This document shows positions 26,806 to 56,800 of a stretch of 64,000 nucleotides of DNA, in pieces. Source of the DNA: an uncultured Verrucomicrobiales bacterium. Its GTDB lineage: Bacteria; Verrucomicrobiota; Verrucomicrobiia; Verrucomicrobiales; DEV007. Location of the stretch: positions 32,001 through 96,000 of the forward strand of contig CALKOM010000023.1 in NCBI GenBank assembly GCA_938091905.1, given 5' to 3'. The notes below the pieces were generated by a model that was not told the origin of the DNA, did not search any database, and saw nothing but the letters and a program-made list of their open reading frames with translations. Each line of letters begins with the position of its first letter. Positions within the stretch are counted from its first letter, which is position 1. The position numbers were made by a program, and so were the translations under genes.

Positions 26806-26898
26806 GACAACCTGAAGCTGTCCTCCGCCGGGTCTTCTGTCAATCTCATGGCAGCTCGACCTGTCTCACCTCCTGACTTATACTTTCTTTCACTGATC

Positions 26899-35101: not shown

Positions 35102-38100
35102 TCAACGGACGCGCACGCGATAATACCCGTTGCCAACCTGGGCCCGAGTCGTATCGTCATCCGTTAGAGTCGATTCAGCGCTTGTCGCCGTCACGGTGCC
35201 GATGGATTGCCAATCAGCATTCAAGGCAGACGCGTATTCCACTTCATAGGTCTTACCCACGACACTCGACCAATAAAGCTCGATCGGAGTCGCAGAACGC
35301 TGCACAGATGTTAGACGGAAGTAATCCGCAGGGTTGTTAGGATCGGTCCCAGCAAACGCTTCGCTCTCATCAGAAACGCCATCGCCATCCGAATCCATGG
35401 TCGGTGCCGTCGGCCCCTCTGACACACTCCCCGGAGAACCCTCGAACTCGCCCACCAACCACGCGTCCGCCATCGAAAGATCGCCGTGTCCAATCACATC
35501 GCGTAAACGCAACGATCGCCCATCGCCATCCGCTTCCGTCGGCCAGCCATCGCTGTCATCATAGCTAAACTCGGCAATCGGCGAACCTGCCCCAAAGGAA
35601 AGCTTCACCCGCTCCCCACCATTAGCAAATCTGCCAGAATAAACACCCGCCACCAAAGGATCAGCACCATAACGCGCCGTAAAGGCCTCCGCATTACCCA
35701 CCACCAACACCGTCGCCTCAGGTGCCAGTGTCACTACATCCCCCGACACAAAGTCAAAGTCCACCCCCTTGGTGAAACGGACAGGCTCAAGATCCAGCGG
35801 CACACTCCCCGCATTATAGAGCTCCACGAACTCAAAGTCTTCCCGACGGAATCCCGCAGCCAGCTCCGCCTCGCTTGGCGCTCCCGGATGATACATCAAC
35901 TCCGTGATCACCAGAGAATCATACACACTCAGATCCGGTGTCCCGGCCACAAACTCCACCGCCTCCGACCAGCGACTCCAACCACCCCGCTGATTCAAAT
36001 GGCGCACCCGGGCACGATATGTATAGCCCGGACGCACCATATTGGTAGGAATCGTCATTTCTTCCGTGATCTTGTCCACAAGATCACTCTCCCAAACACC
36101 CTCGATCTCGTAGCGCCAAGGAGTCCCTACTTCATAATTCGGCGTTGAGGGATTGTAGATCTCCCCAAGTCGCCACTGCATACTCACAAACTCCTGACTC
36201 TGAAAAATCGTCCCACCAGAAAACTCGCCTGAGATGAATGTCAGACCATCCACCGGAAACCCATCCGCCCCCGTGTAGCTGATCGTCGGCCGATCAGGCG
36301 CATTGCCATCATCCCCCTCTTTTCTAACATGATTATAGCCATAGCCACGCTGATCTCCATCTCCCACGCTGAAATCATCGGGATCGGTATTTGTCGTGAA
36401 CGCCTTAAGATACTCAGCAAATCCTGACACATCCGCTGTCAGTAAGGTTCGCGTCAAGTCACCTCCCCGAAAGCTCTGAGTCGTCGGGTTCGCGTAGAAG
36501 TTGCCCGTGTGACCGCCTGTCGTCCGTGGATGATTGTTCCACATCGCCAGATCGATCTCCGCCCACACAGAACCACCACCTGCAGACGTGCCCACCTGCA
36601 CGCCATCAACCGAACTCGGCGCTGAAGAGAATATCGATACCTTGATCGTAAACATCGTCGGATCCACCACCGTGATCTCATGATCGCCATTGTAGCCACT
36701 AGCGGCCACACCCATAATCGACACCAGATCCCCCGTCGCATAATCATGCGCACTTGCAGTGACAACCGTTGCCTTACTTCCAGCCTTCGTGATCGCCGCC
36801 ACATCGATCCAATCCTTTCGGCTTCCCACCCACTGCAAATTCTCCTCAACCACCGATCCCACTTGGCCACCACCCGCCGTGCCATCTTCTAACAGAAGAT
36901 CCAGCAGCTCCCGACAGAAGTTCGCATACTCGATCGCGATCTCATCCTGATTCAGACAAGCCTTCGCATCGATCGTCCCACTCCAATGCGTCTCCGGCAT
37001 GAACGTCATGTCCAAATCCCAAGGCACCGGCGACCACACTCCGTTGGGATTCTGATAGAAGAAATGATTCCACCCCTCACGAATATCAATATTTCCCACC
37101 GCACGATTGATTGCACGGAAACCATAGTAATGTGATAGATTCATGTTCTCCCGCCACCACTCGACAGGCTGGCTGCGCCGCGCTTGGGAAATGAACGCAC
37201 TGTAGCTACTATCGATCGGCCCCTGGTGTTTCTGATCACCATTCCCGCCCTCGATCTTGTAAGTATTTCCCTCAGGCAACCCCAAGCGATTCAGCATCCG
37301 CCCATCGGGCGTCTCCTGACTCAAATACAATCCCCACAAATCGCCCCCATACTGATCACTGCTAGGAGTCTCCTCAGCCTCATCGATCACCCGGAAATGC
37401 AAATGATGCATCTTAGGCGAAGGCACACCCGCCAGCGCCTGCAAGCGAAACGCCGTCGTCTCGTCCAGACCAGACATCCCACGATTCGCCGGCACCCAAG
37501 GAGACGCACACGCCGTGAAATTCATCACCCGAAAACCACCCGGATACGCAATCCCATAGTTGTCACGCGCCCGAAAGTTGTTCCCGCGATTGAAGAAGAA
37601 TTTCCACTTATTCTTACCACTTTGATAGGTCGAGAACTCGCCCCGCACCCGAAACTCCACATGATCATACACCCACCCCTCATAGACCATGGTCCCCAGA
37701 AAGCGGACCTCTTCACTTCCTCGATTGTACTGGGAACGCTCCACATCCGCATTGTCCGCAATCAAATGGTAGACTGGTAGAACGGACATCTCCTCCGAAG
37801 TAAACGTACGCTTCGGTGCCTTGCCAGGCTCGGGTGAACCGCTCCAAGCGGGCACGCCATCATAGACAAAGAAGGCGCGATTGGCCGAAGGATCATCCTC
37901 ATAAGGCAACCTCACCACGTTCCCCACCGCATCTTCGGCAACCACGCGATAACGCACCAAACTTCGATGCGCCACGATGGCGACAGGTACGGTGGCTGAA
38001 TAGATGTCATCCATAGCCACGGCATCGCCACCCGTGCCGTCATCATTCATAGGAACGGATTCCCATGAAGACGCATACGCATCATCCGACAGACGCAGGT

Positions 38101-38800
38101 ATTCACCCGGCTTTAACTCTTGCAATTCTAACATCACTCGAGCCACACCATCAACATCAGTCGCCTTCGCACTGATGACCACCGTCTCACCCGACTTAGG
38201 TTGATCTGGAAGATGCTCCACTTGGCGCACTGCAGGCGGAGGATTCTCGGTAAGCACGCTATTCACTTTGCCAGGCGTCGGTTCCACACTCGTTCGCCAA
38301 TGGCCAGAAAGGCCATTGGCCAAACCTGGATGCATCAACTCCATGCTCAGATCATTGTCATCGTCTGACCCGCCGTCGGCTCCCACCGGCCAAGGAAAGT
38401 TATCCTGATAGTTCACCTTATCGACCACCACATTCTCGGCATTGCGGAGGGTCAGGGTCTCTCCGCTATTCGAAAGCGTTCCGCTCTCCCACGCTCCCTT
38501 CGCCTTCACCCCACCGGTAAAGATCGATCCAAATTTGCGATTGTAAGCACCCTCGTCCTGCGCAAGGACCCAATAACCATCCGCGTCGATCGCAGAGCCT
38601 TCAGGAAAGACGTGCTCAATCCCTTCCGTAAACGACCAACCCGACAGATCAATCGCTCCATCGGTTGGATTGTGTAGCTCCACGAACTCAACGAATTCGG
38701 TAGGATCAGCCGGATGATAGTGAATCTCATTGATCACCACCGTTTGAGACCAGGCGCAGGGGGCGAACGCCAAGACTAGAAAGGTGAATAGCTTCTTCAT
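35102..38800 (-). CDS. Secreted lamin-tail-domain / CotH-kinase protein
   Basis: Signal peptide; LTD VINEIHYHP..EFVELHN; CotH motifs FRVRG..S...KNKWKF, WGLYLSQE, NIDI...NHFFY and PWDLD; second LTD; DSDGDG..GTDP. Confidence 0.85.
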   Translation of the reverse strand: MKKLFTFLVLAFAPCAWSQTVVINEIHYHPADPTEFVEFVELHNPTDGAIDLSGWSFTEGIEHVFPEGSAIDADGYWVLAQDEGAYNRKFGSIFTGGVKAKGAWESGTLSNSGETLTLRNAENVVVDKVNYQDNFPWPVGADGGSDDDNDLSMELMHPGLANGLSGHWRTSVEPTPGKVNSVLTENPPPAVRQVEHLPDQPKSGETVVISAKATDVDGVARVMLELQELKPGEYLRLSDDAYASSWESVPMNDDGTGGDAVAMDDIYSATVPVAIVAHRSLVRYRVVAEDAVGNVVRLPYEDDPSANRAFFVYDGVPAWSGSPEPGKAPKRTFTSEEMSVLPVYHLIADNADVERSQYNRGSEEVRFLGTMVYEGWVYDHVEFRVRGEFSTYQSGKNKWKFFFNRGNNFRARDNYGIAYPGGFRVMNFTACASPWVPANRGMSGLDETTAFRLQALAGVPSPKMHHLHFRVIDEAEETPSSDQYGGDLWGLYLSQETPDGRMLNRLGLPEGNTYKIEGGNGDQKHQGPIDSSYSAFISQARRSQPVEWWRENMNLSHYYGFRAINRAVGNIDIREGWNHFFYQNPNGVWSPVPWDLDMTFMPETHWSGTIDAKACLNQDEIAIEYANFCRELLDLLLEDGTAGGGQVGSVVEENLQWVGSRKDWIDVAAITKAGSKATVVTASAHDYATGDLVSIMGVAASGYNGDHEITVVDPTMFTIKVSIFSSAPSSVDGVQVGTSAGGGSVWAEIDLAMWNNHPRTTGGHTGNFYANPTTQSFRGGDLTRTLLTADVSGFAEYLKAFTTNTDPDDFSVGDGDQRGYGYNHVRKEGDDGNAPDRPTISYTGADGFPVDGLTFISGEFSGGTIFQSQEFVSMQWRLGEIYNPSTPNYEVGTPWRYEIEGVWESDLVDKITEEMTIPTNMVRPGYTYRARVRHLNQRGGWSRWSEAVEFVAGTPDLSVYDSLVITELMYHPGAPSEAELAAGFRREDFEFVELYNAGSVPLDLEPVRFTKGVDFDFVSGDVVTLAPEATVLVVGNAEAFTARYGADPLVAGVYSGRFANGGERVKLSFGAGSPIAEFSYDDSDGWPTEADGDGRSLRLRDVIGHGDLSMADAWLVGEFEGSPGSVSEGPTAPTMDSDGDGVSDESEAFAGTDPNNPADYFRLTSVQRSATPIELYWSSVVGKTYEVEYASALNADWQSIGTVTATSAESTLTDDDTTRAQVGNGYYRVRVR

Positions 38801-41802: not shown

Positions 41803-42810
41803 TCAAGACTGAGGAACTGTATTCTCGATAAAACGATAGAACAGCCGTTCGCGTGGCGAAGGTGCTGATTGGTCTTGGTAGGCGGTGGCACCGGTCCGCC
41901 CTGGATAGAAGGTCTCGATGGTCGTCCAGTTGCCATCGCCTAACAGCGTGGAACGCTCAATGTCATAGCTGACACCAAGTTCCGTTGCCCAGATAACCGT
42001 GATTTGCGTGGGGCTGTCACGAATGGCCATCGGCTCGAGGGGATCAGGAGCATCGACCGTGAGCACCAGTTCGGCTCCGCCTGGATTGTAAGTGCCTTGG
42101 GCGAACCGAAAGACGACATAGTGACCGTTCAGATACTTGTTTAAGGGATAGTAGCGAAGAATCGGGGATGTATCCGTTGTGATGAAATCTGTCTTTGCGT
42201 CCGGCGTCTCTGACAGGATAGCCATACTGAGGGAAGCCGATCCTGGATCAGTGTCCGTGACCCAAATTTCGATGGATGGCACCTTGTCTGCTGTGGCGAT
42301 GCCACCCAAACGTTGGGCATAGCCGAGGCCGTCAAAGACGATGCGTTCGTTGAACTGATAGACGACGACATGAGGCCCCGCGCCTAATCCGCCCCATTGC
42401 GCTCCGTAGTTGAAGCTGTTGTCGAGATCCGCTGGAGTGGGATTGGCATCGTAGAGGAACTCGGGAAGAAAGGTAGCACCTGTCGCGTTGGAACTACTAG
42501 TGGAGGCAATTGGGTCCTCAAGAATAAAGAGGTTCTCCTTGGGGCCGTAAGTGTTTGAAGCAGACGTTAGGGTTGCTTGCTCAGCGCCAACCTGAGATGG
42601 GTCATCGGTAAGGTGCTCTGTCCCGGCCCCTGTGGTCGCTGTGCCTTGGTTGGAAATGGCTGAATCTCCGAGTGGCAATGTGGATTCGACGGTGGTGCGA
42701 TAGATAACTTTCACCGTCTTGTCCGGAGGGAGGTCTCCTAGTGAGACAGAAACGTCTTGTGCCTGGGCGAGGCTGGCGCATGCCAACGCGAGGATGATGA
42801 GGCATTTCAT
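41803..42810 (-). CDS. Secreted protein: DUF11-like N-module, beta-sandwich domain, C-terminal FYR domain
   Basis: Signal peptide; LGDLPPDKTVKVIY...ISNQGT...TDDP; last gene of the collar operon. Confidence 0.65.
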   Translation of the reverse strand: MKCLIILALACASLAQAQDVSVSLGDLPPDKTVKVIYRTTVESTLPLGDSAISNQGTATTGAGTEHLTDDPSQVGAEQATLTSASNTYGPKENLFILEDPIASTSSSNATGATFLPEFLYDANPTPADLDNSFNYGAQWGGLGAGPHVVVYQFNERIVFDGLGYAQRLGGIATADKVPSIEIWVTDTDPGSASLSMAILSETPDAKTDFITTDTSPILRYYPLNKYLNGHYVVFRFAQGTYNPGGAELVLTVDAPDPLEPMAIRDSPTQITVIWATELGVSYDIERSTLLGDGNWTTIETFYPGRTGATAYQDQSAPSPRERLFYRFIENTVPQS

Positions 42811-42827
42811 AGGAATGAACGGTAATG

Positions 42828-43130
42828 TTAGGCGAAGACGGCTTCGAGTTCGAGTTTGCCCTCACGCAGATTGATGGGCACGAGAAAGATGGAAAGGGTG
42901 CCGAGTGTAGGGTGCGCTAACTCGTAAGTCCCTTGTTGGAATTCGGTGGTTTCCACCTGGATGATCAGAGAGAATGGCTTTCTTCCAGAAGTCATCGCGG
43001 TGGGAATATCGGAGACGGAAAGCAGCTTTCCCGGAATGCTCGCTTCGCTTGTCTTTAAAGTGAGCGAAGAATCAACATGAGGCTGAAAGAAGCCACTATC
43101 GACAGAAGCTAGATCAATGGAGGTGCTCAT
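42828..43130 (-). CDS. DUF6916-like protein
   Basis: RKPFSLI...QGTYELAHPTLGTLSIFLVPI...EAVF motif. Confidence 0.78.
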   Translation of the reverse strand: MSTSIDLASVDSGFFQPHVDSSLTLKTSEASIPGKLLSVSDIPTAMTSGRKPFSLIIQVETTEFQQGTYELAHPTLGTLSIFLVPINLREGKLELEAVFA

Positions 43131-43139
43131 GGGTGTGCG

Positions 43140-43634
43140 TTAGTTCAAGATAGCCTCCAGATAACACTTTCCTTCGCCGATATCGATCGGTACCAGGAAG
43201 AGCGAATGTGATTGGAGTGAGGCACTGGCCACCGTGTAGGATCCTTGCTCGAGAGGGGCTGATGCCGAATGGCTTGCCTCAAAGATGAGCTGGAAGGGAG
43301 GGCGCCGAAGCGCGTGTTTGCCGTCAGGTCGCGGGTAAACTGGCAAGTCACGCACTTCATGTAACGTGATCGGCGTCGTCCGACCATTGTCGGTGACTAG
43401 TTCGAAGGACGTGCCTTTCAGGGGCTTGTAGGTCGCGCTACTCACGGTGTTTAGGTCAAAGGCTTCGGGCTCTTGATAGTCGTGGCGTGGCACGGGTTCC
43501 ACCTTGGGGCCGCCCAGAGGCACGTCGCGGCCTTCGATGACGAGTTCTTCATTGGAAGAGTACTCTGCGGGTTTGTCACAACTCGCGAGGGCAACTGCAG
43601 GTGCAGCGATTCGAATGAAATGTCGGCGTTGCAT
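43140..43634 (-). CDS. DUF6916-like protein with Tat/lipoprotein signal
   Basis: MQRRHFI...ALASC N-terminus; PFQLIF...LEQGSY...LFLVPI...EAILN. Confidence 0.72.
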   Translation of the reverse strand: MQRRHFIRIAAPAVALASCDKPAEYSSNEELVIEGRDVPLGGPKVEPVPRHDYQEPEAFDLNTVSSATYKPLKGTSFELVTDNGRTTPITLHEVRDLPVYPRPDGKHALRRPPFQLIFEASHSASAPLEQGSYTVASASLQSHSLFLVPIDIGEGKCYLEAILN

Positions 43635-43638
43635 GAGA

Positions 43639-44148
43639 TTAAGAGGTTGCTGGGATTGGCTGAGGCGATCGCTCTAACAGTTCGTAAACGCCTTGATCTT
43701 CTACAGGGAAGAAGCCCAGTCGACGGTAGAGTCGCATGGCAGGGTTGTTCTTCTCAACGTGAATGCGGACCGGTTTGTGAGACTTCAGTGCTTGCGCTAG
43801 GATGTCCTCGAGAATGCGGCCCCCGATACCGTTGCCGCGATTGGCAGGAAGCAAGGCGATGTCGATGATGCGGATTTCATCCTGACGTTCATCCAAGTAG
43901 AGGCGGCCAATAGGTTGGCCACGGGTATTGAGAATGAGGTCAAACTTGGCCTTGGCGAAGTGTTTCATGTAATGGACATGCTGCGCTTCGAACTGTTGCT
44001 GTAAGAAAGAATCGATCTGGGCCTGTGGCCATCCTGTCTGGGCGAGTTCTTCCTGTCGGGTACTCGCATAGAGGCGACACAGAAAGGCAAGGTCTGCGCT
44101 GCCTGCGTTCAGATCGGCCGAGCGAAAGCTGGTGGAGGGAACGGACAT
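43639..44148 (-). CDS. GNAT family N-acetyltransferase
   Basis: LYASTRQEEL, QFEAQH, IDIALLPANRGNGIG and NPAMRLYRRLGF motifs. ATG 44148 lies 1 nt after the upstream stop. Confidence 0.9.
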   Translation of the reverse strand: MSVPSTSFRSADLNAGSADLAFLCRLYASTRQEELAQTGWPQAQIDSFLQQQFEAQHVHYMKHFAKAKFDLILNTRGQPIGRLYLDERQDEIRIIDIALLPANRGNGIGGRILEDILAQALKSHKPVRIHVEKNNPAMRLYRRLGFFPVEDQGVYELLERSPQPIPATS

Positions 44149-44149
44149 G

Positions 44150-44773
44150 TCAGACGGCATACGATTCTTGAGTCCAGGTTCCTTGCCAGTCACTGCAACG
44201 GGCAAACTTGCTCTCTAACACTGCGACCTCATGGCGATAGGCGGCGTCGGGTTTCGGCCAAATGTCATGCCAGGTGACGCTGTAGTGGGCGGCGGCCGGT
44301 GGCGCCCATTCGAAGACGCTTGTGTGAAGGATCTCTAAGCGTTCACCATAACGCGCTTGCAGATGCGGCGCCACGAGCGTGATCACATCGGCGGATTGTT
44401 CGAGCACCGTGATGCGTTCGACGGGCGATGTTTCCGGCCGCAACAGGCATTCGATGATCATTCCCAGCCCAAGACCACTGATCAAGATGTGGCCGCCCCG
44501 TTGGAGTCCTTCGGTGATCGCTTCGCGTTGGGACCACCATTCTTCGTAGAGGTCGGTCATCATATCGATACCGCCCACTTTCAATCTGGTGTATCTGCCA
44601 GGGCGATGGAGCATCCAATGGGGCACCTCAGGGGAGGCCTCCGAGATCTGACCAGCGGGAACGACGGGCAGAGTGAAGCGTTTCACCTCCCATTCACCAG
44701 AAACGCCTTCGGGTACGTCTGACTTGTAGTAGTCAGTCGGCTCGTAAAGCTGTGATGAAAGGGAAACGGCCAT
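44150..44773 (-). CDS. Class I SAM-dependent methyltransferase (spermidine-synthase-like)
   Basis: ILISGLGLGM (motif I), ITVLEQS (motif II), WHDIWP. Confidence 0.72.
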   Translation of the reverse strand: MAVSLSSQLYEPTDYYKSDVPEGVSGEWEVKRFTLPVVPAGQISEASPEVPHWMLHRPGRYTRLKVGGIDMMTDLYEEWWSQREAITEGLQRGGHILISGLGLGMIIECLLRPETSPVERITVLEQSADVITLVAPHLQARYGERLEILHTSVFEWAPPAAAHYSVTWHDIWPKPDAAYRHEVAVLESKFARCSDWQGTWTQESYAV

Positions 44774-44788
44774 GGGGTGTGGTGAGAC

Positions 44789-45316
44789 CTAGCTGCGGGA
44801 AGGGTAGAGACCTTGAAGGGCGATGATGAAGTTCATGACCAAGTAAGGCTGCATGTTGTTGTGCGCCTGGCCGCCACCTGTGTTGTCGAGCTGATTGATT
44901 GCCATGGTGGCATTGCGAGTGCCGCCATAGAGATTGGTGCCACCTCCTCGACCGGCAATCTGGGCAGGGAGACCGCCTTCTGGATTGGCGTTGTTCGGAT
45001 CCTCCGCTGCACCCATGAGCCCATGGGTGTGAGAGGGCATCTGCGCTTCCGTGAGGGTCGTCGTCTCGCTTCCACCAGATTCTCCGAGTCGTCGTGTGGT
45101 CAGTCCAGGACCGCGGCCAGGGTGCATGGGGGCGCGCCCTTGGAGATTGGGCAAGGCTGTGGTGGTTCTACCGTCGCCTCCATAGGTGGTGCCAATGAGG
45201 GAGAAGAGAGCGGTATTCTGGGCGATCGGGAGCAACTGCCCATAACAGAACGCCCAGCTTCTAGGAGCAAATTTGCCAGCGAAGATGCGGATCTCAGCGA
45301 TGAAAGGTTCTGACAT
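44789..45316 (-). CDS. Phage tail-collar domain protein (microcystin-dependent-protein-like) 3
   Basis: MSEPFIAEIRIFAG.FAPR.WAFC.GQ, LFSLIGTTYGGDG, HNNMQPY..NFIIALQGLYPSR. Confidence 0.9.
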   Translation of the reverse strand: MSEPFIAEIRIFAGKFAPRSWAFCYGQLLPIAQNTALFSLIGTTYGGDGRTTTALPNLQGRAPMHPGRGPGLTTRRLGESGGSETTTLTEAQMPSHTHGLMGAAEDPNNANPEGGLPAQIAGRGGGTNLYGGTRNATMAINQLDNTGGGQAHNNMQPYLVMNFIIALQGLYPSRS

Positions 45317-45899
45317 GAAGATAGAAGCTTGAGTTAGTTTCGGGATGGGAAGAGGCCGAAGAGCGCCACGATGAAATTCACGCAGACGAAAGGTTGGACA
45401 TTGTCATGCGCTTGGCTGCCTCCCGTGTGTCCGATCGCATCTGCGTTCATGGCAGCGCGTTGTGTGGCACCGGCCTTGTAGGTGAGAATGGTGCCTCCGG
45501 GATTGGCAAAGATGGCACCATCGGGAGAGTTGGCCGTGCCTGTACCCGTGGTCCCTCGCGAGGTATGCGTGTGGGAGCCGATCTGTGAGGCTGAGAGAAT
45601 CTCACCCTCCTGCCCCGACTTGCTTCCGAGGGGGCGGTTGGACAGTCCTGGGCCCCAGCCTTGGTGAATGGGAATGCGCCCACGCATGTCTGGTAGGCCA
45701 AAGGTGGTGCGGCCGTCGCCACCGTAGGTTGTGCGTAACAAACTGAAGAGCACGTCATTCTGAGCGACGCCTATCAATTGCCCGTCACAGAACGCCCAGC
45801 CTCTGGGAGCGAATCTCCCAGCAAACATTCTGATTTCGCCTACAAACGGTTCTGACATGAAAATAGAAGCTTGAGTTAGTTTCGGGATGGGAAGAGGCC
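45306..45899. repeat. 52-nt direct repeat at collar-gene junctions (45306-45357 and 45848-45899)
   Basis: GGTTCTGACATGAA(G/A)ATAGAAGCTTGAGTTAGTTTCGGGATGGGAAGAGGCC, one mismatch, including the 17-nt intergenic spacer. Confidence 0.9.
45334..45858 (-). CDS. Phage tail-collar domain protein 2
   Basis: MSEPFVGEIRMFAG.FAPRGWAFCDGQ...TTYGGDG.TTFGLPDMRGR...HTH...GLFPSRN. Confidence 0.9.
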   Translation of the reverse strand: MSEPFVGEIRMFAGRFAPRGWAFCDGQLIGVAQNDVLFSLLRTTYGGDGRTTFGLPDMRGRIPIHQGWGPGLSNRPLGSKSGQEGEILSASQIGSHTHTSRGTTGTGTANSPDGAIFANPGGTILTYKAGATQRAAMNADAIGHTGGSQAHDNVQPFVCVNFIVALFGLFPSRN

Positions 45900-46382
45900 T
45901 CGCATGGCGATGCAGAAGGCGAGGGTCGTGTAAGGCTGCATGTTGTTGTGCGCCTGCCCACCGGCATTGGCGAGCATGCCAGGGTCCATGCTGGCGTTAG
46001 GTGTACCGCCAATGTTGAACAAATTTAGGCTTGCAGTGTTGGAAGCGAAGTAGTTTCCCCCAACTGTGGAGGCGGCTGCCGTCGTATTGGAAACCCGCAC
46101 GGTGTGCCGATGCGGTGGAATCTCTGAGGCGTCGAGCAAGTGCGTTTCATAGCCGCCCTTATGGCCCAGGGAGTGACCATTGCCCTCTTGGATGGGCGTG
46201 CGCCCCCGCAAATCAGGAAGCCCAAAGGACGTGCGACCGTCGCCACCGTAGGTTGTGCCTAACAAACTGAAGAGGGACTGGTTCTGATTGATTGGCAAGA
46301 TCTGCCCATCGCAGAAGGCCCAACCCCGAGGGGCAAAGTTGAATCCCACGATACGAATTTCTGCAAGAAAGGGTTCTGACAT
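45876..46382 (-). CDS. Phage tail-collar domain protein 1
   Basis: MSEPFLAEIRIVGFNFAPRGWAFCDGQ...GTTYGGDG...LPDLRGR...HRH...HNNMQPY. Confidence 0.9.
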   Translation of the reverse strand: MSEPFLAEIRIVGFNFAPRGWAFCDGQILPINQNQSLFSLLGTTYGGDGRTSFGLPDLRGRTPIQEGNGHSLGHKGGYETHLLDASEIPPHRHTVRVSNTTAAASTVGGNYFASNTASLNLFNIGGTPNASMDPGMLANAGGQAHNNMQPYTTLAFCIAMRGLFPSRN

Positions 46383-46406
46383 AGGTGTGAAGTCTGAAAT
46401 CTCAAA

Positions 46407-49304
46407 TTAAGGGACGACGACGGATGGGTCTGTTGGATCCGTGCTCGACAGGTTGACTGTGCCATTCACGATCGATGCCTGGCCGTTCAAGTTGGTGCCT
46501 TGGTCGGCAATGACGCCATCGACTGTCCCCGCGCTTGAGCCATCGATGAACAAGTGGACATTGGCAGAAGTGGCGACGTCGAATTCAAAGGCGTTGTGGG
46601 CAAAGCCAGCATCGAAATCGACAAAGATCTGGTCGCTCGAAGAAGCCGTTTGGAACTCAACGCTCTTGTCGCTGCGGAAGTTAAACATCGTGTCGTGATC
46701 CGGAATGATTTGGTTCTGTTTCTCGATGTGCACTTCGCCGCCGTTGCGCGTGTTGTGGACGATCGACTCGTAGGGAAACTCTTGGGTTGCTGACACGCCG
46801 AGGTCCGTGTTGTCGGCATTGCCACTGGTGACGTCGTGGATGATCTCATTACTCACGAAATGATGGTAGTGCTCGGCATTGTCCGTATCCGTGCGGGCAA
46901 TGTGTCCCCAGACTTCACGGTGCGTGTTGTTCTGAACGATGCTTTCCCCGGTGGTTCCATCTTTCGCGGTGATGTTTAGGCTCGCGCCAAATTGGGCTGC
47001 ATTGTCGCCTTGCAGGCCTTCGAGCGTGTTGTTCGTGAAGATCGCTTCAAAGGTGCTTCCAGTTCCGCCGATGATCATTTCGACTTCACCCTGGGGGAAG
47101 CCTTTGAAGGCGAAGCTACTTCCGGCATCGGTAAGATGATCGGTGACTTGGAAGGTGTTGCGCGAGACGTGCACATCGAGATCTCCAGAGAAGGCAGGCG
47201 CATTCGGCGCCGTTCGGATATTCATGGAACCGTAGTCACCTTTGCCACAATTTAGAAACGTATTGCCTAACAAATCCTCTAAGTCGGCAAGATCACCGAT
47301 GATGATGTCTGCTGTGACTGAACCGGCCACATAAACTTCCAAGCCAGCAGCGCCGACACTCACATCAGCACTGGTGAACTCTTTCAAGGATCGCTCAAAG
47401 TGATTGCGCGTCAGGTCGAATCGAACACTACCACTATCCGCAGTGATGAACTGAGCTAAACCAGATCCATGCTGGAAGGTGTTGTTATCCAAGGTCACCT
47501 GACCGCTGATGCCGTGAACTCGGATCATGGATTCACGGAAGACCGAGCGGGTGTCGTCACCGATATTTCCAGGCAGATGGAAACGATTTGTATCCGTGAT
47601 AGATGAGTTGGTGATCTCAAGGCCGACCAAGGTTGTCCGTTCGGTGTAGGTGACGGGCACATCGAATGGCGTGGCATTGATGGCGCAATCACTGACGTTA
47701 TCGATCCGCACGCGGTCGAGACTCAAACCACCTGCGAGTGCCGCCGCATGAATGGCATCGGCACCGCTTTGATAAGTGGTCGTGAGCATGGCGTCATCCG
47801 TGCCGTTGATGTCATTGATATCGAGATTTCTCAGGGTCATCAAGCCGGCGTTGGCAGCCAGGCGAACAGCATCAACGTCAGTCTTGTTCGTGATAAAGCC
47901 TGCGCTCCCCAAGGTCGTGCCTGTGCCTGTGAGCGTGAATGGCCCAACAGTGCCGAGAACTTGAAGGCCAGGCTCAGTGCCGCCAGTCGATTCGATGCGT
48001 TCCAAACTCACACCAGCCCCCGCCACCCCAAGTGTCGTGCTTTGCAGATTGACAGCTCCGCCACTCTCACAAATGACCTTGGATCCCGAAGCGAAATTCA
48101 CTGTTGTCTGGTTGGCGCCGAGACCCGCAAAGAGGATCCCTTGGCCACCGCCCGTGCACTGCAGATCCACCATTCCAAAGTTCGCGTTGCCCGATACATT
48201 TAGAGCCCGAATCCCGTTCTGACTTCCTCCATTCTTCACGATGGAATCGAAGCTGACGTTCAAGTTGCCTCCATTGAGAGCGAGGCTTCCCCCTGATCCA
48301 GAGATGGCCATTTCGCGAATCACTAGACTGCCAAACGTGGTCCCAGCGATCGCAGCGAGATCCGTGTCGGCGATGTTTAGACCGCGCAGCACGTTCGCCG
48401 CGGCCAAGTTGATAGCATTTCCGCTAGAAGTATTCAAAACCGGGCGGGCACCTTGACTCGGCAAAGCAAGCGAATGGGGAGGAAGCGTGAGCCCGCAGAA
48501 GTCGTGGAGGCTTTGGCTAGATCCCTGGCCCATGACGCGTTGATTGTTCGCTAGATTGAGACTGTCATTGTAACTACCCGAGTAGATAAACAAACAATCG
48601 CCATCGGCATCCATGGCGTTGCTGTTGTGCTGCGCGAGGGTCTGGAATGGACTGCCCAGACGTCCATCGCCCGCCGAGGGATTTGAATCGTCAAAGAACC
48701 AGATCATCCCAGTGACGTTGATGCTCACCTCGACGACGCCATTGCCTGTGCTGGCATCATTGAGAGCATCTTCATCTGTGATCACGTAGGTGAACGTATC
48801 CGCGCCCTGAAACCCGACAGCAGGCATGTAAGTGAATGCGCCATTCAGGCTCATGCTGACCTGCCCGCCACCTGATGTGGCGATGCTTGGGGGACCGGCT
48901 TGAAGATCGCTGATACCGTTCCCGTTTGTTCCGTCCGGATCACGGTCATTAGCCAACACCCCTGCTGCTGCTGCCACCTGTATGCCGACATTCCCCATGC
49001 AGTCATAGCTGTCGTCCAAGGCAATGGGCGTCACCATGACGGAATCGCCTATTAACGTAGTGTTCGCATCGACCGCGGTTTCATAAACGAGATCCGTACC
49101 GCTGAAGCCGCTGGTATTGGTGATCTCGGCTTCCAGAGTGATGCTCTCACCAGGATTGGCTTTGCCGTCCGTCTTCACTTCCTCCCCCAGAGTATCGTCC
49201 AGGGTGATGTCCAGGTTCGGGGTGGGAACGCCAGCGATCGCCAGCCACGTGCCAATGCCAATCACGGGTAGGCAGACGATTCCGAGTAGAGTTTGATGTT
49301 TCAT
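46407..49304 (-). CDS. Secreted adhesin-like protein (Ig/cadherin-like domain + parallel beta-helix)
   Basis: Signal anchor; PIALDDSY...GVLANDRDPDG...GAFTYMP..GFQGADTFTY Ig-like unit; GDGRLGSPFQT followed by a long N/G/T-rich beta-helix-like region. Confidence 0.75.
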   Translation of the reverse strand: MKHQTLLGIVCLPVIGIGTWLAIAGVPTPNLDITLDDTLGEEVKTDGKANPGESITLEAEITNTSGFSGTDLVYETAVDANTTLIGDSVMVTPIALDDSYDCMGNVGIQVAAAAGVLANDRDPDGTNGNGISDLQAGPPSIATSGGGQVSMSLNGAFTYMPAVGFQGADTFTYVITDEDALNDASTGNGVVEVSINVTGMIWFFDDSNPSAGDGRLGSPFQTLAQHNSNAMDADGDCLFIYSGSYNDSLNLANNQRVMGQGSSQSLHDFCGLTLPPHSLALPSQGARPVLNTSSGNAINLAAANVLRGLNIADTDLAAIAGTTFGSLVIREMAISGSGGSLALNGGNLNVSFDSIVKNGGSQNGIRALNVSGNANFGMVDLQCTGGGQGILFAGLGANQTTVNFASGSKVICESGGAVNLQSTTLGVAGAGVSLERIESTGGTEPGLQVLGTVGPFTLTGTGTTLGSAGFITNKTDVDAVRLAANAGLMTLRNLDINDINGTDDAMLTTTYQSGADAIHAAALAGGLSLDRVRIDNVSDCAINATPFDVPVTYTERTTLVGLEITNSSITDTNRFHLPGNIGDDTRSVFRESMIRVHGISGQVTLDNNTFQHGSGLAQFITADSGSVRFDLTRNHFERSLKEFTSADVSVGAAGLEVYVAGSVTADIIIGDLADLEDLLGNTFLNCGKGDYGSMNIRTAPNAPAFSGDLDVHVSRNTFQVTDHLTDAGSSFAFKGFPQGEVEMIIGGTGSTFEAIFTNNTLEGLQGDNAAQFGASLNITAKDGTTGESIVQNNTHREVWGHIARTDTDNAEHYHHFVSNEIIHDVTSGNADNTDLGVSATQEFPYESIVHNTRNGGEVHIEKQNQIIPDHDTMFNFRSDKSVEFQTASSSDQIFVDFDAGFAHNAFEFDVATSANVHLFIDGSSAGTVDGVIADQGTNLNGQASIVNGTVNLSSTDPTDPSVVVP

Positions 49305-49611
49305 ATGAAGCAAACAAGCGGTTTCGGAGGGTAACGGCCCCCGTAGAGTATCCCTACGGGAAAAGCGACCAGGTGTTTCAGCTGGCCAGAAAAGAAGAGC
49401 GACATTCTAAGCACGGGGGGACGAACTACCAGGTCGGCCCGACGTTTGGCAAGCCTCTTACCAGGCAAATGGACGAATCTCCCGTTTCAGATAGCGCGCA
49501 GACTCGTCACAGCGCTTCCCCCCAGACCTGGACCATGATACTCCCGCGAAACGTGCAAGCACCACGAGCAAGTGGCTTCAGGATGCACGGCTACACAAAA
49601 CCCATCTGAGT

Positions 49612-52600
49612 TCAGTCGGGCGCGTTCGGGGGTAGTCTTGCTTCATCCCCCTGCTCCGTTTCGGCATCGATCGCTACGGGCATCTCGGATGGGCTAGATT
49701 CTTGCACCGGTTGGACATTGATATCCACATCCACGGGCACGGCACGGAGCTTGTTAATGATGTCTTCTAACTTCGCTATTGTCGCATCTGCTAGAGTCGC
49801 GGGCTGCTGCTGATGAGCCAAGGAAGCTGCAAGAACCTCCTGGATGCGATCCGTACTGGCATTGAAGGCGGCCAGTTGGCCAACCACGCGTGAAACAGGA
49901 TCGTTGTCGCGCGCACCTCCCGTGAGGAGGTTGCGCGCGAAGGTCTTCTTGATCTCTTCCCAGCGCACGGAGTCTTCTTCTGTTAGGAATCCTTCAAGGT
50001 CTTGGAACTTCAACAGGTTGGCTTCGGCACCGGTCGTCAGCGTTTGAGATTCATTCTCGTAGTGATCCTTGATAACGTTGATCACTTCTTCCTCCGTCAT
50101 GATGGGCAGGATCTTTTCCGCCATGCGATTCATGTTTCTGTAAGAACCCTGAAGCTTAAATGGCGGCTCGGTGCGGTACTCGTCCGACTGCGCAGCGGAG
50201 CGAATGTATTCCAAGTTTACCCGCAGGACGGTGTCACGCACGCGCATGAGCTTGGTCATGACATCGACCATCTCACTGACCTCCTCCGGCGTGTAGTTGC
50301 CTTCGAAATCGACGCCATCAGCCGTGCCATTGCGAGCGATTTGAATGATCGCATGCACGTCTTTCTGGCTGCGCGATCCCAGGGGTGCGAGAATGGCGTT
50401 ACTCGTCAGACAGTTCTCCAAATAGGAATCCTCAAACGCCTGCTGATGGGTACCGACGATATCACCGAGGTTGTAGGTATCGGCCCGGTTGGCCAGCATG
50501 TCAGGAATCTGAAACTTGCCTCCGCTTTCCGTGTAAGGATTGCCCGCCATCACGACAGCGACCTTGCGGCCACGCAAATCGTAGGTCCGGGCCACGCCAT
50601 CGTAGACGCCCTCAATGCGTCGCTGGCCGTCGCAAAGTGAGATGAACTTCTGCAAGAACTCGGGATCACAGTGCTGAATGTCATCGAGGTAGATCATGAC
50701 ATTGTCTCCCATCTCAAGAGAGAGATTGAGCTTCTTGACCTCTTCTCGGGCACTTGCGTTAGGCGCTTCTACCGGATCGAGCGAGCGCACTTGGTGACCA
50801 AGAGCCGGCCCATTGACCTTCACAAAGGTCAATCCTAACCGATCCGCCATGTATTCCATCAAGGTCGTTTTACCGTAACCCGGCGGCGAGATAAGTAAAA
50901 GCAAGCCCATCCGGTCGGTGCGCGTGTCGGCCCCTGCCACACCAATCTGCTTGGCCAAGTTATCGCCAATCATCGGCAAGTAAACTTCGTCCAGCAACCG
51001 GTTCCGTACAAAGGAACTCATGATCCGTGGCTTGAACTCGTCCAATCGCAATAACTCACGTTTGTCCACCGTCAGCGTGTGTTTGATCTCTGTGTAGCGC
51101 TGAAAGAGAGGCAGCGTCTGGCGCTCAAATCTGGCGAGCTTGCTTAGAAACTTGGTGTAGTGGAGGTGATAGTTTCCCTGCGCGATCACAGCATGATTGC
51201 CTAACATGCCATCGATATCAGATTCCAACGGCACCTCAACAACCTCGGCACTTTGCACACCGCCTCGCAAGAGATGGGCAGCCGCCTCATCAAGATACGC
51301 ATGACTGGAATCGAAAGCCCGTAGCCAATCGCGGATGACCTCAAACTCATCTTGAGGGAACTTGGCCAACTTCTTGCGCGCTGCTTCGAAGGCCGATTGC
51401 TGGCGTTTCGTTGCGAGCCCTTTCTGAAAAGCACTCACCAGGGACGCGGCTTCGGCGCTCACGGTGAAACTCGCGCCATCCACCATCTCGTGAAAGAGAT
51501 AGGCTGCGGTCTCCTCAGCGCCGTCGCCTAACCATTGCTGCAATCTCTCGATGTAGGTCGTTTGCAAGGCAGGCGCCTCGTCGAAAGCGCTGCGAACGGC
51601 ACCGAAAGATTCTAGCTGATGAAAGAGACGCTGTTTCTCATGATCTTCTTTCCAAGCTCTCCACGCCACAATACCTTGAGCACGCACTGCTGGATCATAG
51701 CGTAAGAGTCCCGCTTTGGCCTGCAACGGAAGGAGCCGTTTTAAAATACAGAAAGCGTCATGGTCATGGACCCCCTTGGTGTAGCCTTCGGCATAACGAG
51801 GTGCCATGAACTTTCGTAAGACTTCCAGCTCGACTTCCAGGTCACCCACATGCTCTTGGAAATAGCGATAGGCTAGGTACTCACCCCGGTAAACCTCTGA
51901 GCTTTCCGATAGGACTTCTTGGCTCCACGCAGGCTGCGTTTCCAAAAACACCGGATCCTTAATCGGCTCAAAGAAATTCGTGCCCGTGAGGTGGAAGCAC
52001 ATCGCCTCGTCGCGAGGCACGACGGTGAGCTCCAGCGTCTGTTGATTCACGGAGAATCGATGCTTTCCTAGTTGAATAATCGCCTTGCCATCGACGAACA
52101 GTTCCTTGCGATCCTTGAGCTGACGAACAGCATCCTCACGTTGACTCTTCAGCTTTGCCTGAATGGCATCCGCTTTGACCGAGTCACCGAGATCTTGCAA
52201 CTGCGTGACGATGTCACGCACCTTCTCAATCATCAGATCAGATGCCAAGTAGGCGTTGATCTCGTGGAGTTCTTGAAAGCCGTCGAGCCGATTGTGAATA
52301 CTCTGGAAGATGCGTTCGGCAGACTTTTCCAGGTTGGCAGCGCGCTTGTTGCGCGATTCTAACAAGCTGACTTTGCGAGCCTCAAACGCATCGTATATTT
52401 CGGTGCGTTTCTCGCCAAGCTCAGCCACATAATCATCGAACTCGGCATACTTGCCTTCGAGTTCCTCCAGCTGGACCATCGTCTTGCTCAAGTAAGACTC
52501 ACACTTCTCTGGCGAATCACACAGTTCGAGGTAGTTGACCACGGCCTGATTGAGCAACTTAAGCTGCGCCTGAAACTGAGCAGCGCCTTCCTCACGCCCA

Positions 52601-54621
52601 AGCTCACGCAAGGTATTCTTCAAGGTCACACGGACTTGATTCAGCGTGCCGTAGATATCGGAAATGCCATCGATAATCTGAGTGGTCTGCGTCGCGTCCT
52701 CGATCTTGAGGTTGCTCACGATGTCGATGAGCATCTCCAGCTCTTCTCCCGTCTTTCCTAGCTCTTCGTCAATGACCTTGCCTTCGGCAGCCTTGGAAAT
52801 CTTCTCGATCGCGACCTGCTGTTGTTCAACCTGATCTCGGTAAGGTCTTAGCGAATCGTCCTTGAGCAGAAACTCCACACAATGTCCCGAGACCCGTTCC
52901 GCCACCTCCTGGACTTCTGATTCCAAGGCCTCAAGCTGCTCGATATTGACATACCGGACATCGCGCAAGGAGATGACTTCACCACGCACGCCTCGCAAGT
53001 CTGCTAGATGATGCACATAGCCCATGATATCATCCGGGCGACTGTGTTCCGCTTTAGAAATAAGCTTTCGCGCACGCTCAGTGAGCGCCGTGGTCTGGGC
53101 CGTAGCGGATTTGCGCAGGCGGGTGACCTTCTCAAATTCCGCAATGGCAGATTCCGCAGCCGTCTGTATCGCCCCTAACGGTTCACTTAGAACATAGGCT
53201 TCCTTCTGACCTACCCAGAAATACGAGTTGCTGACATCCGAGGCTTTCTTGGCCAAGTCATGATAGAGATTTGCATACGCATCGTCCTTGCCCAGGAGAT
53301 TGAGCACTTCGTGGCACTCTGCCATGCAACGCACAATGTCCGCATTGCCCAATTTGTAGAGATAGTGATCCCTCTGCGCCGAAGGAGCTTGGGCATCAGC
53401 ATCGATGTAGGGCGTTTGCCATACCTGGAGAGCGTGATGCTTCTGTGGCTGATCTTCGGTTCGGAAATAGATCAGTTCACCATCCTCGAACACGCTGTAG
53501 CCTGAACAACTGATCGGCGTGTCAACTTGCTGATCAATGATGTTGTAAGACATTAGCACGTAGTCGCCAGAAGCGCGATTGTAGAAGACGTAAAGGTGGT
53601 CCTCGCCATTCGGCGCTGCGAGACGACGCTCAAAGATCATGTCCTTGGGCCCACTTTCAAACAGCTTCGTTTCGCCACTTTGCAGGTGAAAGCCATTCGA
53701 GAAGATGATGCCATGCTCGTCGGGCAAGAGCACACAAGCATTCTCAATCGCATCAAAGCGCTGCACCGTCTTGAGCTTCTCATTGAAGACGAGGTAACGA
53801 AAATCGTTTTCTTGATAGGGTCGTATCTTCAGAACAATAAGACTGCCGATGATCGTGTAGAAGATCTCAGCATCATCGAGCGTCTGATCTGCCTCCGTCA
53901 CCGGCTCAGCATAGATGCCTTCGCCACTGCTGGTGTTGTCTTCAACCTTAACAGTGAGATCTCCACCGACGGTTTCAACAAAGACTCGGTCTTCGATCGA
54001 GACATGAGGATGCTCGCCGCCACGCTGCATGTCACGGTGCGCACGGGTCCATTCAAAGTCTTGCTGCCTCGGGAAACTATACTCGTGATCCGATCGATTC
54101 CCCTGGTAGACTAACGTTCCGTCATCTCGCAGAAGCCATTTGAACGTCTTGACGTCCGTGACATCCCGCCCGGCGCGAAAGGCCATGTAGAGGTGGGGCC
54201 CAATGACGAGGAACTTCGCAAAGACCGTGTCGCGGTAGTACTTGTAGAGATGGCCGAAGTCATGGAGGAAACTGTCGTCGCCCAAGATATCATCTAGCGG
54301 GACTGCGGTGAACGCATGCGTGGCGTTTTCATAGTGGTAAGCCGCAAAGACATCCGAAGGCGCGGTGGTCGACTTTAGACCAATGTGTACATTGAACCCA
54401 AAGAGAAAACGCCCCTGACCGATCGCTACCATATCGCGCGGCACACAGTTGTGCTGCGTGGTGACACGTTCTGTGGCAATGAGGCTGGGCTCGATCGCGC
54501 CAAAGACATCTTGGCGTTCTCGATTCAGCGACTCAAGCCGTCCGCGCAAGTCATCGCCTTGTGCTTGCAAGCGCTGGCGGATGACCTCGTAGGCACCTGA
54601 TTCTAACGTTTCTTCCGGCAT
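49612..54621 (-). CDS. Giant coiled-coil AAA+ ATPase (DUF3686-like, 'DNA repair ATPase' family)
   Basis: GAYEVIRQRL N-terminus, beta-rich region, long coiled coil, Walker A SPPGYGKTT, Walker B YLDDIQH, AGNPY. Start set at MPEETL. Confidence 0.85.
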   Translation of the reverse strand: MPEETLESGAYEVIRQRLQAQGDDLRGRLESLNRERQDVFGAIEPSLIATERVTTQHNCVPRDMVAIGQGRFLFGFNVHIGLKSTTAPSDVFAAYHYENATHAFTAVPLDDILGDDSFLHDFGHLYKYYRDTVFAKFLVIGPHLYMAFRAGRDVTDVKTFKWLLRDDGTLVYQGNRSDHEYSFPRQQDFEWTRAHRDMQRGGEHPHVSIEDRVFVETVGGDLTVKVEDNTSSGEGIYAEPVTEADQTLDDAEIFYTIIGSLIVLKIRPYQENDFRYLVFNEKLKTVQRFDAIENACVLLPDEHGIIFSNGFHLQSGETKLFESGPKDMIFERRLAAPNGEDHLYVFYNRASGDYVLMSYNIIDQQVDTPISCSGYSVFEDGELIYFRTEDQPQKHHALQVWQTPYIDADAQAPSAQRDHYLYKLGNADIVRCMAECHEVLNLLGKDDAYANLYHDLAKKASDVSNSYFWVGQKEAYVLSEPLGAIQTAAESAIAEFEKVTRLRKSATAQTTALTERARKLISKAEHSRPDDIMGYVHHLADLRGVRGEVISLRDVRYVNIEQLEALESEVQEVAERVSGHCVEFLLKDDSLRPYRDQVEQQQVAIEKISKAAEGKVIDEELGKTGEELEMLIDIVSNLKIEDATQTTQIIDGISDIYGTLNQVRVTLKNTLRELGREEGAAQFQAQLKLLNQAVVNYLELCDSPEKCESYLSKTMVQLEELEGKYAEFDDYVAELGEKRTEIYDAFEARKVSLLESRNKRAANLEKSAERIFQSIHNRLDGFQELHEINAYLASDLMIEKVRDIVTQLQDLGDSVKADAIQAKLKSQREDAVRQLKDRKELFVDGKAIIQLGKHRFSVNQQTLELTVVPRDEAMCFHLTGTNFFEPIKDPVFLETQPAWSQEVLSESSEVYRGEYLAYRYFQEHVGDLEVELEVLRKFMAPRYAEGYTKGVHDHDAFCILKRLLPLQAKAGLLRYDPAVRAQGIVAWRAWKEDHEKQRLFHQLESFGAVRSAFDEAPALQTTYIERLQQWLGDGAEETAAYLFHEMVDGASFTVSAEAASLVSAFQKGLATKRQQSAFEAARKKLAKFPQDEFEVIRDWLRAFDSSHAYLDEAAAHLLRGGVQSAEVVEVPLESDIDGMLGNHAVIAQGNYHLHYTKFLSKLARFERQTLPLFQRYTEIKHTLTVDKRELLRLDEFKPRIMSSFVRNRLLDEVYLPMIGDNLAKQIGVAGADTRTDRMGLLLLISPPGYGKTTLMEYMADRLGLTFVKVNGPALGHQVRSLDPVEAPNASAREEVKKLNLSLEMGDNVMIYLDDIQHCDPEFLQKFISLCDGQRRIEGVYDGVARTYDLRGRKVAVVMAGNPYTESGGKFQIPDMLANRADTYNLGDIVGTHQQAFEDSYLENCLTSNAILAPLGSRSQKDVHAIIQIARNGTADGVDFEGNYTPEEVSEMVDVMTKLMRVRDTVLRVNLEYIRSAAQSDEYRTEPPFKLQGSYRNMNRMAEKILPIMTEEEVINVIKDHYENESQTLTTGAEANLLKFQDLEGFLTEEDSVRWEEIKKTFARNLLTGGARDNDPVSRVVGQLAAFNASTDRIQEVLAASLAHQQQPATLADATIAKLEDIINKLRAVPVDVDINVQPVQESSPSEMPVAIDAETEQGDEARLPPNAPD

Positions 54622-54628
54622 GATAAAG

Positions 54629-54678: not shown

Positions 54679-54685
54679 ATTACGA

Positions 54686-56788: not shown

Positions 56789-56800
56789 CTTCAGTAAGAG

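Follow-up and report, generated by a model that had tools for sequence, protein, structure and literature searches.

Collar-domain genes are annotated by the thousands in bacterial chromosomes as 'tail fiber proteins' and are usually taken for prophage debris. The question raised by a locus on the minus strand of contig CALKOM010000023.1, from an uncultured Verrucomicrobiales bacterium, is whether its three collar genes are remains of this kind or belong to a bacterial system of their own. The locus occupies positions 41803-49313 of the 64,000-nt stretch analyzed here (hereafter, the window) and comprises nine open reading frames (ORFs) arranged head to tail, which encode a giant surface protein, three collar proteins, a methyltransferase-like protein, a GNAT acetyltransferase, two proteins of the DUF6916 family and a 335-aa protein (Table 1). 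The co-oriented, tightly packed arrangement described in a first-pass annotation of the DNA was confirmed: the minus-strand ORFs lie 1-24 nt apart, with spaces, from the first gene to the ninth, of 24, 17, 17, 15, 1 (or an 11-nt overlap, depending on the start of the GNAT gene), 4, 9 and 17 nt. The analysis indicates that the window carries one copy of a very common chromosomal gene set of bacteria, whose core consists of three collars, the GNAT and DUF6916 and which usually lies beside a giant protein. Such collar genes are thereby placed in a fixed set of about six parts, with natural fusions showing which parts pair.

The recurrence of the set was established in a scan of one genome per species, which matched at least 607 stretches, 603 of them confirmed as relatives; the best 79 loci were kept for all locus counts, and the window proteins were mapped onto all of their ORFs. 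According to the record titles, these 79 loci represent at least 11 phylum-level groups (Acidobacteriota, Pseudomonadota, Chloroflexota, Bacteroidota, Gemmatimonadota, Planctomycetota, Verrucomicrobiota, Actinomycetota, Methylomirabilis, Eremiobacterota and Saccharimonadales), in line with the earlier proposal that the collar triplet and its GNAT recur in many bacteria, and plasmid or chromid records add Deinococcus and Paenibacillus. The collars stand in the order 1-2-3 in 66 loci and form two or three complete 1-2-3 units in 3 more (69 in total), the other 10 showing different orders or cut-off sets. An orthologue of the GNAT occurs in 75 loci, 73 of them within 3 kb (E values of 1e-16 to 1e-52), so that its proposed membership of the set holds at the level of a core component. 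DUF6916 was detected in 56 loci by single-sequence search and in 70 by an iterated profile (one copy in 41, two in 29), and a giant-protein homologue, found by iterated search in 52 loci, lies mostly directly upstream on the same strand.

The same layout can be recognized in existing annotation, since RefSeq describes two such loci as three 'tail fiber protein' genes, a 'GNAT family N-acetyltransferase' and a giant 'choice-of-anchor D' or 'Ig-like' protein; in the Ruegeria locus a 97-aa hypothetical protein adjoins the GNAT. Collar 1 has at least 8000 relatives (all 8000 scored candidates matched), annotated as 'tail fiber protein', 'phage tail protein' or 'microcystin-dependent protein', and is about 65% identical to relatives in Acidobacteriota, Gammaproteobacteria, cyanobacteria, Chloroflexota and Bacteroidota. 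No description of the triplet-GNAT-DUF6916 set, and no paper using the term 'DUF6916', was found in the open full-text literature (subscription journals not covered). Two loci depart from the common pattern, with the collars in the order 2-3-1 in L065 (Eremiobacterota) and 2-1-3 in L070 (Saccharimonadales), and no GNAT or DUF6916 was found in the available DNA of either; these may represent a simpler or older form of the gene set.

On the interpretation usually given to such genes, the locus would be what is left of a prophage, tailocin or contractile injection system, and its collars surviving tail fibres. This explanation draws on the collar domain and its PHROG matches to tail proteins, on the phage-typical family of the methyltransferase-like gene, and on weak, non-significant fold matches of DUF6916 that include tail and baseplate proteins. 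However, capsid, tail, sheath, baseplate and integrase families had no member among the 50 window ORFs scanned, no structural, lysis or integration gene was found in the 64 kb, and the remainder of the window, flanking the locus, contains ATP synthase and pyrimidine (pyr) genes, ybeY, dinB and several giant surface proteins. Clustering of the unlabelled ORFs up to 6 kb from the collars in the 79 loci (469 in all) gave a single neighbour family present in more than four loci, that of the giant proteins. Likewise, none of a random 138 of 357 candidate neighbour ORFs had its best PHROG match to a tail, baseplate, sheath, capsid or portal protein; this sample included one transposase, while 'minor head protein' and 'terminase' appeared as weak secondary matches of a peptidase and an FtsK. 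Among 50,697 phage records, 326 matched collar 1, all below 60% identity (34-38% in the 25 listed, inside larger 'minor tail proteins'), whereas its identity to class-1 orthologues in other phyla is 52-67%. Moreover, the Pfam Collar match begins at residue 7-8, meaning that these proteins start at the collar and have no shaft. The synteny check over the 79 loci thus upholds the earlier view of the locus as neither a prophage nor a contractile injection system; a phage remnant is extremely improbable, and the gene set is almost certainly a conserved non-phage module.

The three collar proteins have high-scoring matches to Pfam Collar (PF07484; 100, 94 and 91.3 bits for collars 1-3, cut-off 24) and carry an HxH motif, the presumed metal site, at residues 91-93 in collar 1 and 96-98 in both collar 2 and collar 3. 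Across the 243 collar ORFs of the loci, the HxH motif and a third conserved histidine near the C-terminus are present without exception and a conserved cysteine occurs in 235. Conserved termini around a variable middle, remarked on from the window alone, are a general property of the family: in every class, conservation is high over the first ~95 and the last ~26 residues (mean top-residue frequency 0.77-0.83), whereas the ~50 residues of the middle vary (0.40-0.41). The Pfam family note places the last collar strand after a long loop, and the variable part would therefore be a distal insert. In a tree of the 243 ORFs, classes 1, 2 and 3 correspond to three clades (Jaccard 0.977, 0.975 and 0.987; clade support 0.998, 0.953 and 0.507, respectively), and since these clades extend across phyla, the triplication predates the spread of the set over these phyla. 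Extra collar copies come as whole 1-2-3 triplets, as in the 3 loci mentioned above.

The ends of the first two collar genes are nearly identical in the window. Positions 45859-45905 and 45317-45363, each comprising the last ~30 nt of collar 1 or collar 2, the 17-nt spacer and the first codons of the following gene, differ by one mismatch in ~47 nt as judged by eye, which suggests gene conversion or a conserved coupling element between paralogues.

Further evidence on how the three collars may act together came from longer relatives, of which 1576 matched and the best 120 were analyzed. Exactly three collar cores in one chain were found in 102 of these 120; 39 resolve as three whole modules, and 29 of the 39 contain one module per class, in the orders 2-1-3 (22 chains), 1-2-3 (4), 3-2-1 (2) and 3-1-2 (1). 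The other 81 are short-insert or permuted forms that lie beyond sorting by the class profiles. In chains with a signal sequence, the first collar motif follows directly after the hydrophobic N-terminal segment, the position at which stand-alone collars start, and the inner modules have no free N-terminus. Among the permuted forms, P0146, P0202 and P0180 are circularly permuted triple collars in which a signal peptide is followed by the C-terminal strand motif and the chain ends, after the third HxH, in a PEP-CTERM anchor; their inserts measure ~13 residues, compared with the usual ~50.

Fixed one-of-each gene sets, duplication of whole units and gene fusions are the usual signs of a hetero-oligomer. 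Because the collars occur as one-of-each sets, duplicate as whole triplets and have single-chain relatives with three modules, we read them as a 1:1:1 trimer, and on these comparisons of genes and sequences the three collars probably form a heterotrimer. Such a trimer would be clamped by the histidine motifs, with the variable inserts as its binding face. The heterotrimeric fibre tip of the first-pass annotation is thus strongly suggested by gene sets, unit duplications and three-module chains, the physical complex itself being inferred. If correct, the model gives a large block of unexplained genes a testable role as a heterotrimeric relative of proteins known only as homotrimers, and the combination of variable insert and conserved scaffold would make the collars interesting in practice as natural binding scaffolds.

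The GNAT is recognized by two Pfam models (Acetyltransf_1, 41 bits, cut-off 20.7, E = 2.8e-10; Acetyltransf_7, 38.6 bits, cut-off 27), and GNAT fold models match all 46 aligned orthologues. In profile searches against the PDB, its best named matches were N-terminal acetyltransferases (6wqb at 1.9e-13, Naa50 and the RimI entry 9mto). Both DUF6916 proteins of the window are members of PF21880 (57.8 and 64.3 bits, cut-off 27), a family with 9,553 representatives at E <= 0.001 in a 50%-identity library. The short copy was modelled with AlphaFold 2 (AF2) as a small beta-barrel at high confidence (predicted local distance difference test, pLDDT, 93.8; predicted template modelling score, pTM, 0.84), and fold searches of the PDB and BFVD gave nothing at E <= 0.001. 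Weak, non-significant hits to tail and baseplate proteins and to protease barrels were not used.

Regarding gene position, DUF6916 belongs with the GNAT. The gap from the GNAT to the nearest DUF6916 gene has a median of 12 nt, with 53 of 73 within 100 nt, compared with a median of 350 nt to the nearest collar, and in loci with a duplicated GNAT (L038, L050 and L072) every copy is accompanied by a separate DUF6916. In addition, two natural GNAT-DUF6916 fusions were found, P0243, which hhalign aligns to the GNAT profile at 3e-30 and to the DUF6916 profile at 3.2e-16, and P0293. The earlier recognition of two DUF6916-like proteins was correct, but it missed that one is a cytoplasmic form and the other a Tat/lipoprotein form (see below), and that the family pairs with the GNAT and not with the collars. 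Judged from this adjacency and the two fusions, GNAT and DUF6916 may constitute one enzyme-plus-adaptor unit, which offers a lead to DUF6916 function as a partner of GNAT.

The substrate of this unit may be the collars themselves. Residue 2 of the collar proteins is small (S, A, T or G) in 231 of 243, and the GNAT-DUF6916 unit would acetylate the three collars at their conserved Ser/Ala N-termini. The modification would remove a charge that is absent from the linked or signal-cleaved single chains. We derive this capping from the GNAT/DUF6916 pairing, the likeness to N-terminal acetyltransferases, the small residue at position 2, the start position of collars in single chains and the inner modules without a free N-terminus; it is offered tentatively, as a rather unlikely but specific proposal, and would amount to a dedicated N-terminal acetylation system. 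The known N-terminal acetyltransferases of RimI, RimL and Naa50 type are comparable in that the best PDB matches of the GNAT profile bear such names and the presumed substrates have Ser/Ala after Met, but the likeness of the window GNAT is limited to the cofactor-binding core, and we know of no beta-barrel partner like DUF6916 for these enzymes.

The longer of the two DUF6916 proteins introduces an export signal into the set. Its sequence begins MQRRHFIRIAAPAVALASC, with two arginines at residues 3-4 and a cysteine at residue 19, and is predicted to contain a twin-arginine translocation (Tat) signal with a lipobox. Tat-type copies account for 27 of 99 DUF6916 ORFs and occur in 26 of the 79 loci, beside a short copy without a signal. 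More generally, Tat-like signals were enriched near the collars, being present in 30 of 238 small ORFs within 1.5 kb and in 4 of 402 at greater distances (odds ratio 14.4, p = 3.6e-10), and 10 of these 30 ORFs (~223-257 aa) belong to no Pfam family. The latter were considered as possible DUF6916 proteins, which hhalign ruled out (probabilities 0.4 and 0.2). This second kind of Tat-signal protein, of 235-257 aa, lies between collar 3 and the GNAT in five loci (L042:11590-12300, L051:1900-2640, L052:11549-12322, L061:11619-12374 and L035:12485-13192) and just after the GNAT in a sixth (L046:12402-13157); in the window, this place is taken by the methyltransferase-like gene and the GNAT.

The Tat pathway moves folded proteins, and it is a known pattern for a signal-bearing partner to carry a signal-less, metal-holding oligomer, as the small subunit of hydrogenase does for the large one. 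By analogy, the trimer, already folded and lacking signals of its own, might cross the membrane by hitch-hiking on the DUF6916 copy with the Tat signal and lipobox, which would then tether it there. As in the known hitch-hiker systems, the gene of a small protein with a signal lies next to those of signal-less partners that are probably oligomeric and metal-binding; the locus differs in that the Tat-type copy was detected in no more than 26 of the 79 loci. Export by Tat hitch-hiking is accordingly put forward as a doubtful element of the model, although it would define a possible new class of hitch-hiker cargo.

The fourth recurrent component is the giant protein. The 968-aa member in the window has an N-terminal hydrophobic anchor or signal followed by a cadherin-like/Big_9 domain (residues 95-189; Big_9 1.1e-10, Cadherin_5 4e-07), and is shorter than its counterparts beside the collars elsewhere, which have 1000-3000 aa; the part common to the 52 loci spans residues ~50-650. 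Profile comparison with the PDB matched an RTX protein (3e-09) and, weakly, beta-helix glycosidases (GH110, 7e-4; xylosidase, 3.8e-3), and Pfam gave no beta-helix match in this protein. The portion after the Big_9 domain is, on the profile comparison, a probable right-handed beta-helix. Of the earlier description as a 'beta-helix adhesin', the giant protein with a cadherin-like domain stands, while the beta-helix label is softer. The tie proposed between collars and giant protein is sustained by its presence in the 52 loci and by P0233 (1391 aa), in which three collar modules lie between HYR and cadherin-like domains, Pfam families also found in the giant protein of the window.

Several observations point towards the cell surface. 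A signal-like N-terminus was seen in 81 of the best 120 longer relatives, and a PEP-CTERM-like end in 45. The reported exoproteome of Ruegeria pomeroyi includes a collar protein (PMC4949626), and soil metaproteomes list COG4675 proteins (PMC5579227). A surface device is supported by these outward signals, by P0233, by the exoproteome and metaproteome reports and by the giant protein in 52 of 79 loci, and the balance tips slightly towards a trimer that acts outside the cytoplasm together with the giant protein. It would work there as a binding or adhesion device, its location and ligand being inferred.

As a whole, the explanation that best accommodates these results, at a confidence slightly short of even, is a metal-clamped 1:1:1 tip combined with capping by GNAT/DUF6916, Tat hitch-hiking and the giant protein, with the methyltransferase-like gene and the 335-aa protein as local additions. 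In its strictest form, with an obligate 1:1:1 tip whose N-termini are capped by GNAT-DUF6916 and which is exported folded by Tat on a DUF6916 paralogue to serve as the binding head of a giant surface protein, the model is unlikely; if true, it would describe an organelle of adhesion derived from phage and complete with a maturation and export route of its own. A number of findings weigh against these proposals. The GNAT is missing in 4 of the 79 loci, DUF6916 in 9 and the giant protein in 27, some of these being short contigs. Among the 39 chains with three whole modules, 10 do not have one module per class, and the AF2 model of the three-module P0127 (22-row alignment) is of low confidence (pLDDT 63.6, pTM 0.55) and does not show the packing of the modules; a fold search with it returned tail-fibre tips as best matches (8kec, 3.5e-4), a family-level hint. 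Insert lengths show no clear co-variation between paralogues in the 28 of 49 sets parsed, where they are nearly constant (48-55 residues) and their correlations are weak and of mixed sign. The likeness of the GNAT to N-terminal acetyltransferases is confined to the acetyl-CoA-binding core (profile positions ~60-155), and DUF6916 has no conserved Lys, Ser or Cys, which together with the lack of a significant fold match makes its adaptor role a guess. Because the Tat-type DUF6916 occurs in 26 of 79 loci alone, hitch-hiking is not the general route unless the carrier is encoded elsewhere. Finally, signal peptides are lacking in the collars, the GNAT and the short DUF6916, which would also fit a wholly cytoplasmic role.

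Each of the remaining explanations takes up some of these points. Known tail-fibre tips, such as T4 gp12, are homotrimers, and the three collars might likewise be alternative homotrimers, that is, interchangeable tips of different specificity, a reading that suits the retention of an HxH and a variable insert in every paralogue and the absence of clear co-variation in insert length. The number of collars should then vary, yet complete 1-2-3 sets are found in 69 of 79 loci and extra copies as whole triplets; besides, divergence of the three classes preceded the spread across phyla, and the single chains hold exactly three modules in 102 of the best 120 and one per class in 29 of 39, all of which renders alternative homotrimers improbable. 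The missing signal peptides of five core proteins are instead central to a set acting inside the cell, either as a decoy or poison of phage fibre assembly or as a toxin-like GNAT checked by DUF6916, with the giant proteins as coincidental island neighbours. Pairs of a GNAT and a small protein are a known toxin-antitoxin layout, and positive selection on collar paralogues of Solibacter has been reported (PMC3174227). However, none of the nine locus proteins matched a PADLOC defence model, and DUF6916, whose gene is often convergent to that of the GNAT (26 of 62 close pairs) and is sometimes fused to it, does not suit the part of an antitoxin. Relatives carry Tat signals, signal peptides, PEP-CTERM ends and fusions to cadherin domains, all of them pointing outward, and in most of the 52 loci the giant protein is the immediate neighbour of the collars, frequently on their strand; we regard an intracellular role as quite unlikely. 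A very unlikely alternative, finally, is that the trimer is a released bacteriocin-like or lectin-like factor used against other cells, from which the cytoplasmic and periplasmic DUF6916 copies and the GNAT protect the producer. Two DUF6916 copies, one per compartment, would fit such protection and a variable binding insert would suit targeting, and a collar protein has been reported in an exoproteome (PMC4949626) and the Rhi and Mrp relatives are tied to cell-cell interactions (PMC13133039, PMC3328848); but each collar is a tip of ~170 aa alone with no killing domain, no release or lysis gene recurs in the 79 loci, and the GNAT-DUF6916 fusions favour one enzyme over two separate immunity factors.

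Comparison with known collar proteins further delimits the set centred on the proposed heterotrimer. Phage tail-fibre tips are the nearest relatives of solved structure. The receptor-binding tip of gp12, the short tail fibre of phage T4, the cyanophage A-1(L) fibre (8kec) and the gp10 C-terminal domain share with the window collars the Collar domain, an HxH after the collar, a long insert and a C-terminal strand, and direct sequence matches of the collars to 8kec (0.0021) and 1ocy (0.0064) are weak. These tips differ in having a shaft and a virion or tail cluster, whereas the window proteins, of 168-175 aa, form three fixed paralogues accompanied by a GNAT, DUF6916 and a giant protein. Stand-alone, non-phage bacterial collar proteins have been described before, namely RhiB and the Microcystis proteins MrpB/MrpC ('microcystin-dependent protein', COG4675 'MdpB'), the nearest named relatives in bacteria, and the Rhi and Mrp relatives are tied to cell-cell or plant interactions (PMC13133039, PMC3328848). 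The rhi operon of Rhizobium leguminosarum is described as encoding one collar protein, RhiB, together with RhiA and RhiC, neither of which has a Pfam domain, with rhiI and rhiR as flanking genes (PMC13133039). No triplet, GNAT or DUF6916 is described for rhiABC(D) in that report. The window has three collar genes, and neither the LuxI nor the LuxR family was found among its scanned ORFs, so that a rhiABC-type layout does not apply; RhiB was likewise not identified among the plasmid matches listed.

Two of the nine genes fall outside the conserved set. The 207-aa protein has a single family match, to PHROG 15480 'methyltransferase' (2.8e-26), and none in Pfam, NCBIfam or the PDB sequences; its nearest protein-atlas clusters are 62-93% viral, one of them with Spermine_synth in 13% of members. 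The initial assignment as an S-adenosylmethionine (SAM) methyltransferase is therefore softer than stated, as it relies on the PHROG match and the atlas lead while curated models and the PDB give no match, and the gene is a local accessory of a phage-typical family, outside the core. It had been viewed as occupying a variable slot for tailoring enzymes; the slot between collar 3 and the GNAT is indeed variable, but it is filled mostly by Tat-signal proteins and not by tailoring enzymes. As a homologue of the methyltransferase-like gene occurs in 4 of 79 loci alone, the suggested tailoring by methylation has no general role. The 335-aa protein matched nothing in Pfam, NCBIfam or PHROG and has a homologue in 1 of the 79 loci, where it lies away from the collars. 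Its signal-like N-terminus agrees with the 'secreted' part of its first description, the 'anchor-like' part found no support, and the gene is probably co-transcribed here and not part of the conserved set.

Table 1. Genes of the collar locus in the order of transcription, with window coordinates and principal family matches.
Feature	Coordinates	Strand	Remarks
Giant-protein member, 968 aa	46407-49313	-	ATG at 49304 also possible; Pfam Big_9/cadherin-like
Collar protein 1, 168 aa	45876-46382	-	Pfam Collar 7e-29; class 1; no signal peptide
Collar protein 2, 174 aa	45334-45858	-	Pfam Collar 5.2e-27; class 2
Collar protein 3, 175 aa	44789-45316	-	Pfam Collar 3.6e-26 and Gp10_C 9.9e-06; class 3
Methyltransferase-like protein, 207 aa	44150-44773	-	PHROG 15480 2.8e-26
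GNAT acetyltransferase	43639-44205	-	188 aa from TTG; likelier start ATG 44160 or 44148; Pfam GNAT families
DUF6916 exported form, 164 aa	43140-43634	-	Pfam DUF6916 1.2e-15, residues 66-162; predicted twin-arginine signal and lipobox
DUF6916 short cytoplasmic form, 100 aa	42828-43130	-	Pfam DUF6916 1.1e-17
Secreted 335-aa protein, no family	41803-42810	-	Signal-like N-terminus

Searches for tRNA genes and Rfam families found none in the window, and a scan for promoters and terminators gave nothing of use. Directly upstream of the locus, on the minus strand (49612-57439), lies a probable operon for a 1676-aa DUF3686-DUF7902-AAA ATPase, with a weak PADLOC match to LmuB (9e-07), a 700-aa SPFH/Band 7 protein and a YqiJ/NfeD-like membrane protein, which may be a defence-like or membrane-stress system. 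On the same strand, at 61907-63344, consecutive ORFs of 198, 100 and 107 aa match positions 3-198, 270-369 and 377-423 of the TctA transporter model, as if a tctA gene had been disrupted by frameshifts or stops. A 118-aa ORF at 14834-15190 (minus strand) matches the first half alone of an RNA ligase model (positions 2-94 of 171) and may be a gene fragment. Additionally, the window is unusually rich in large secreted proteins, and the giant proteins at 15379-21030, 26773-30198 and 35102-38800 combine Lamin-tail, CotH kinase-like, TSP3 and chitobiase-C domains.

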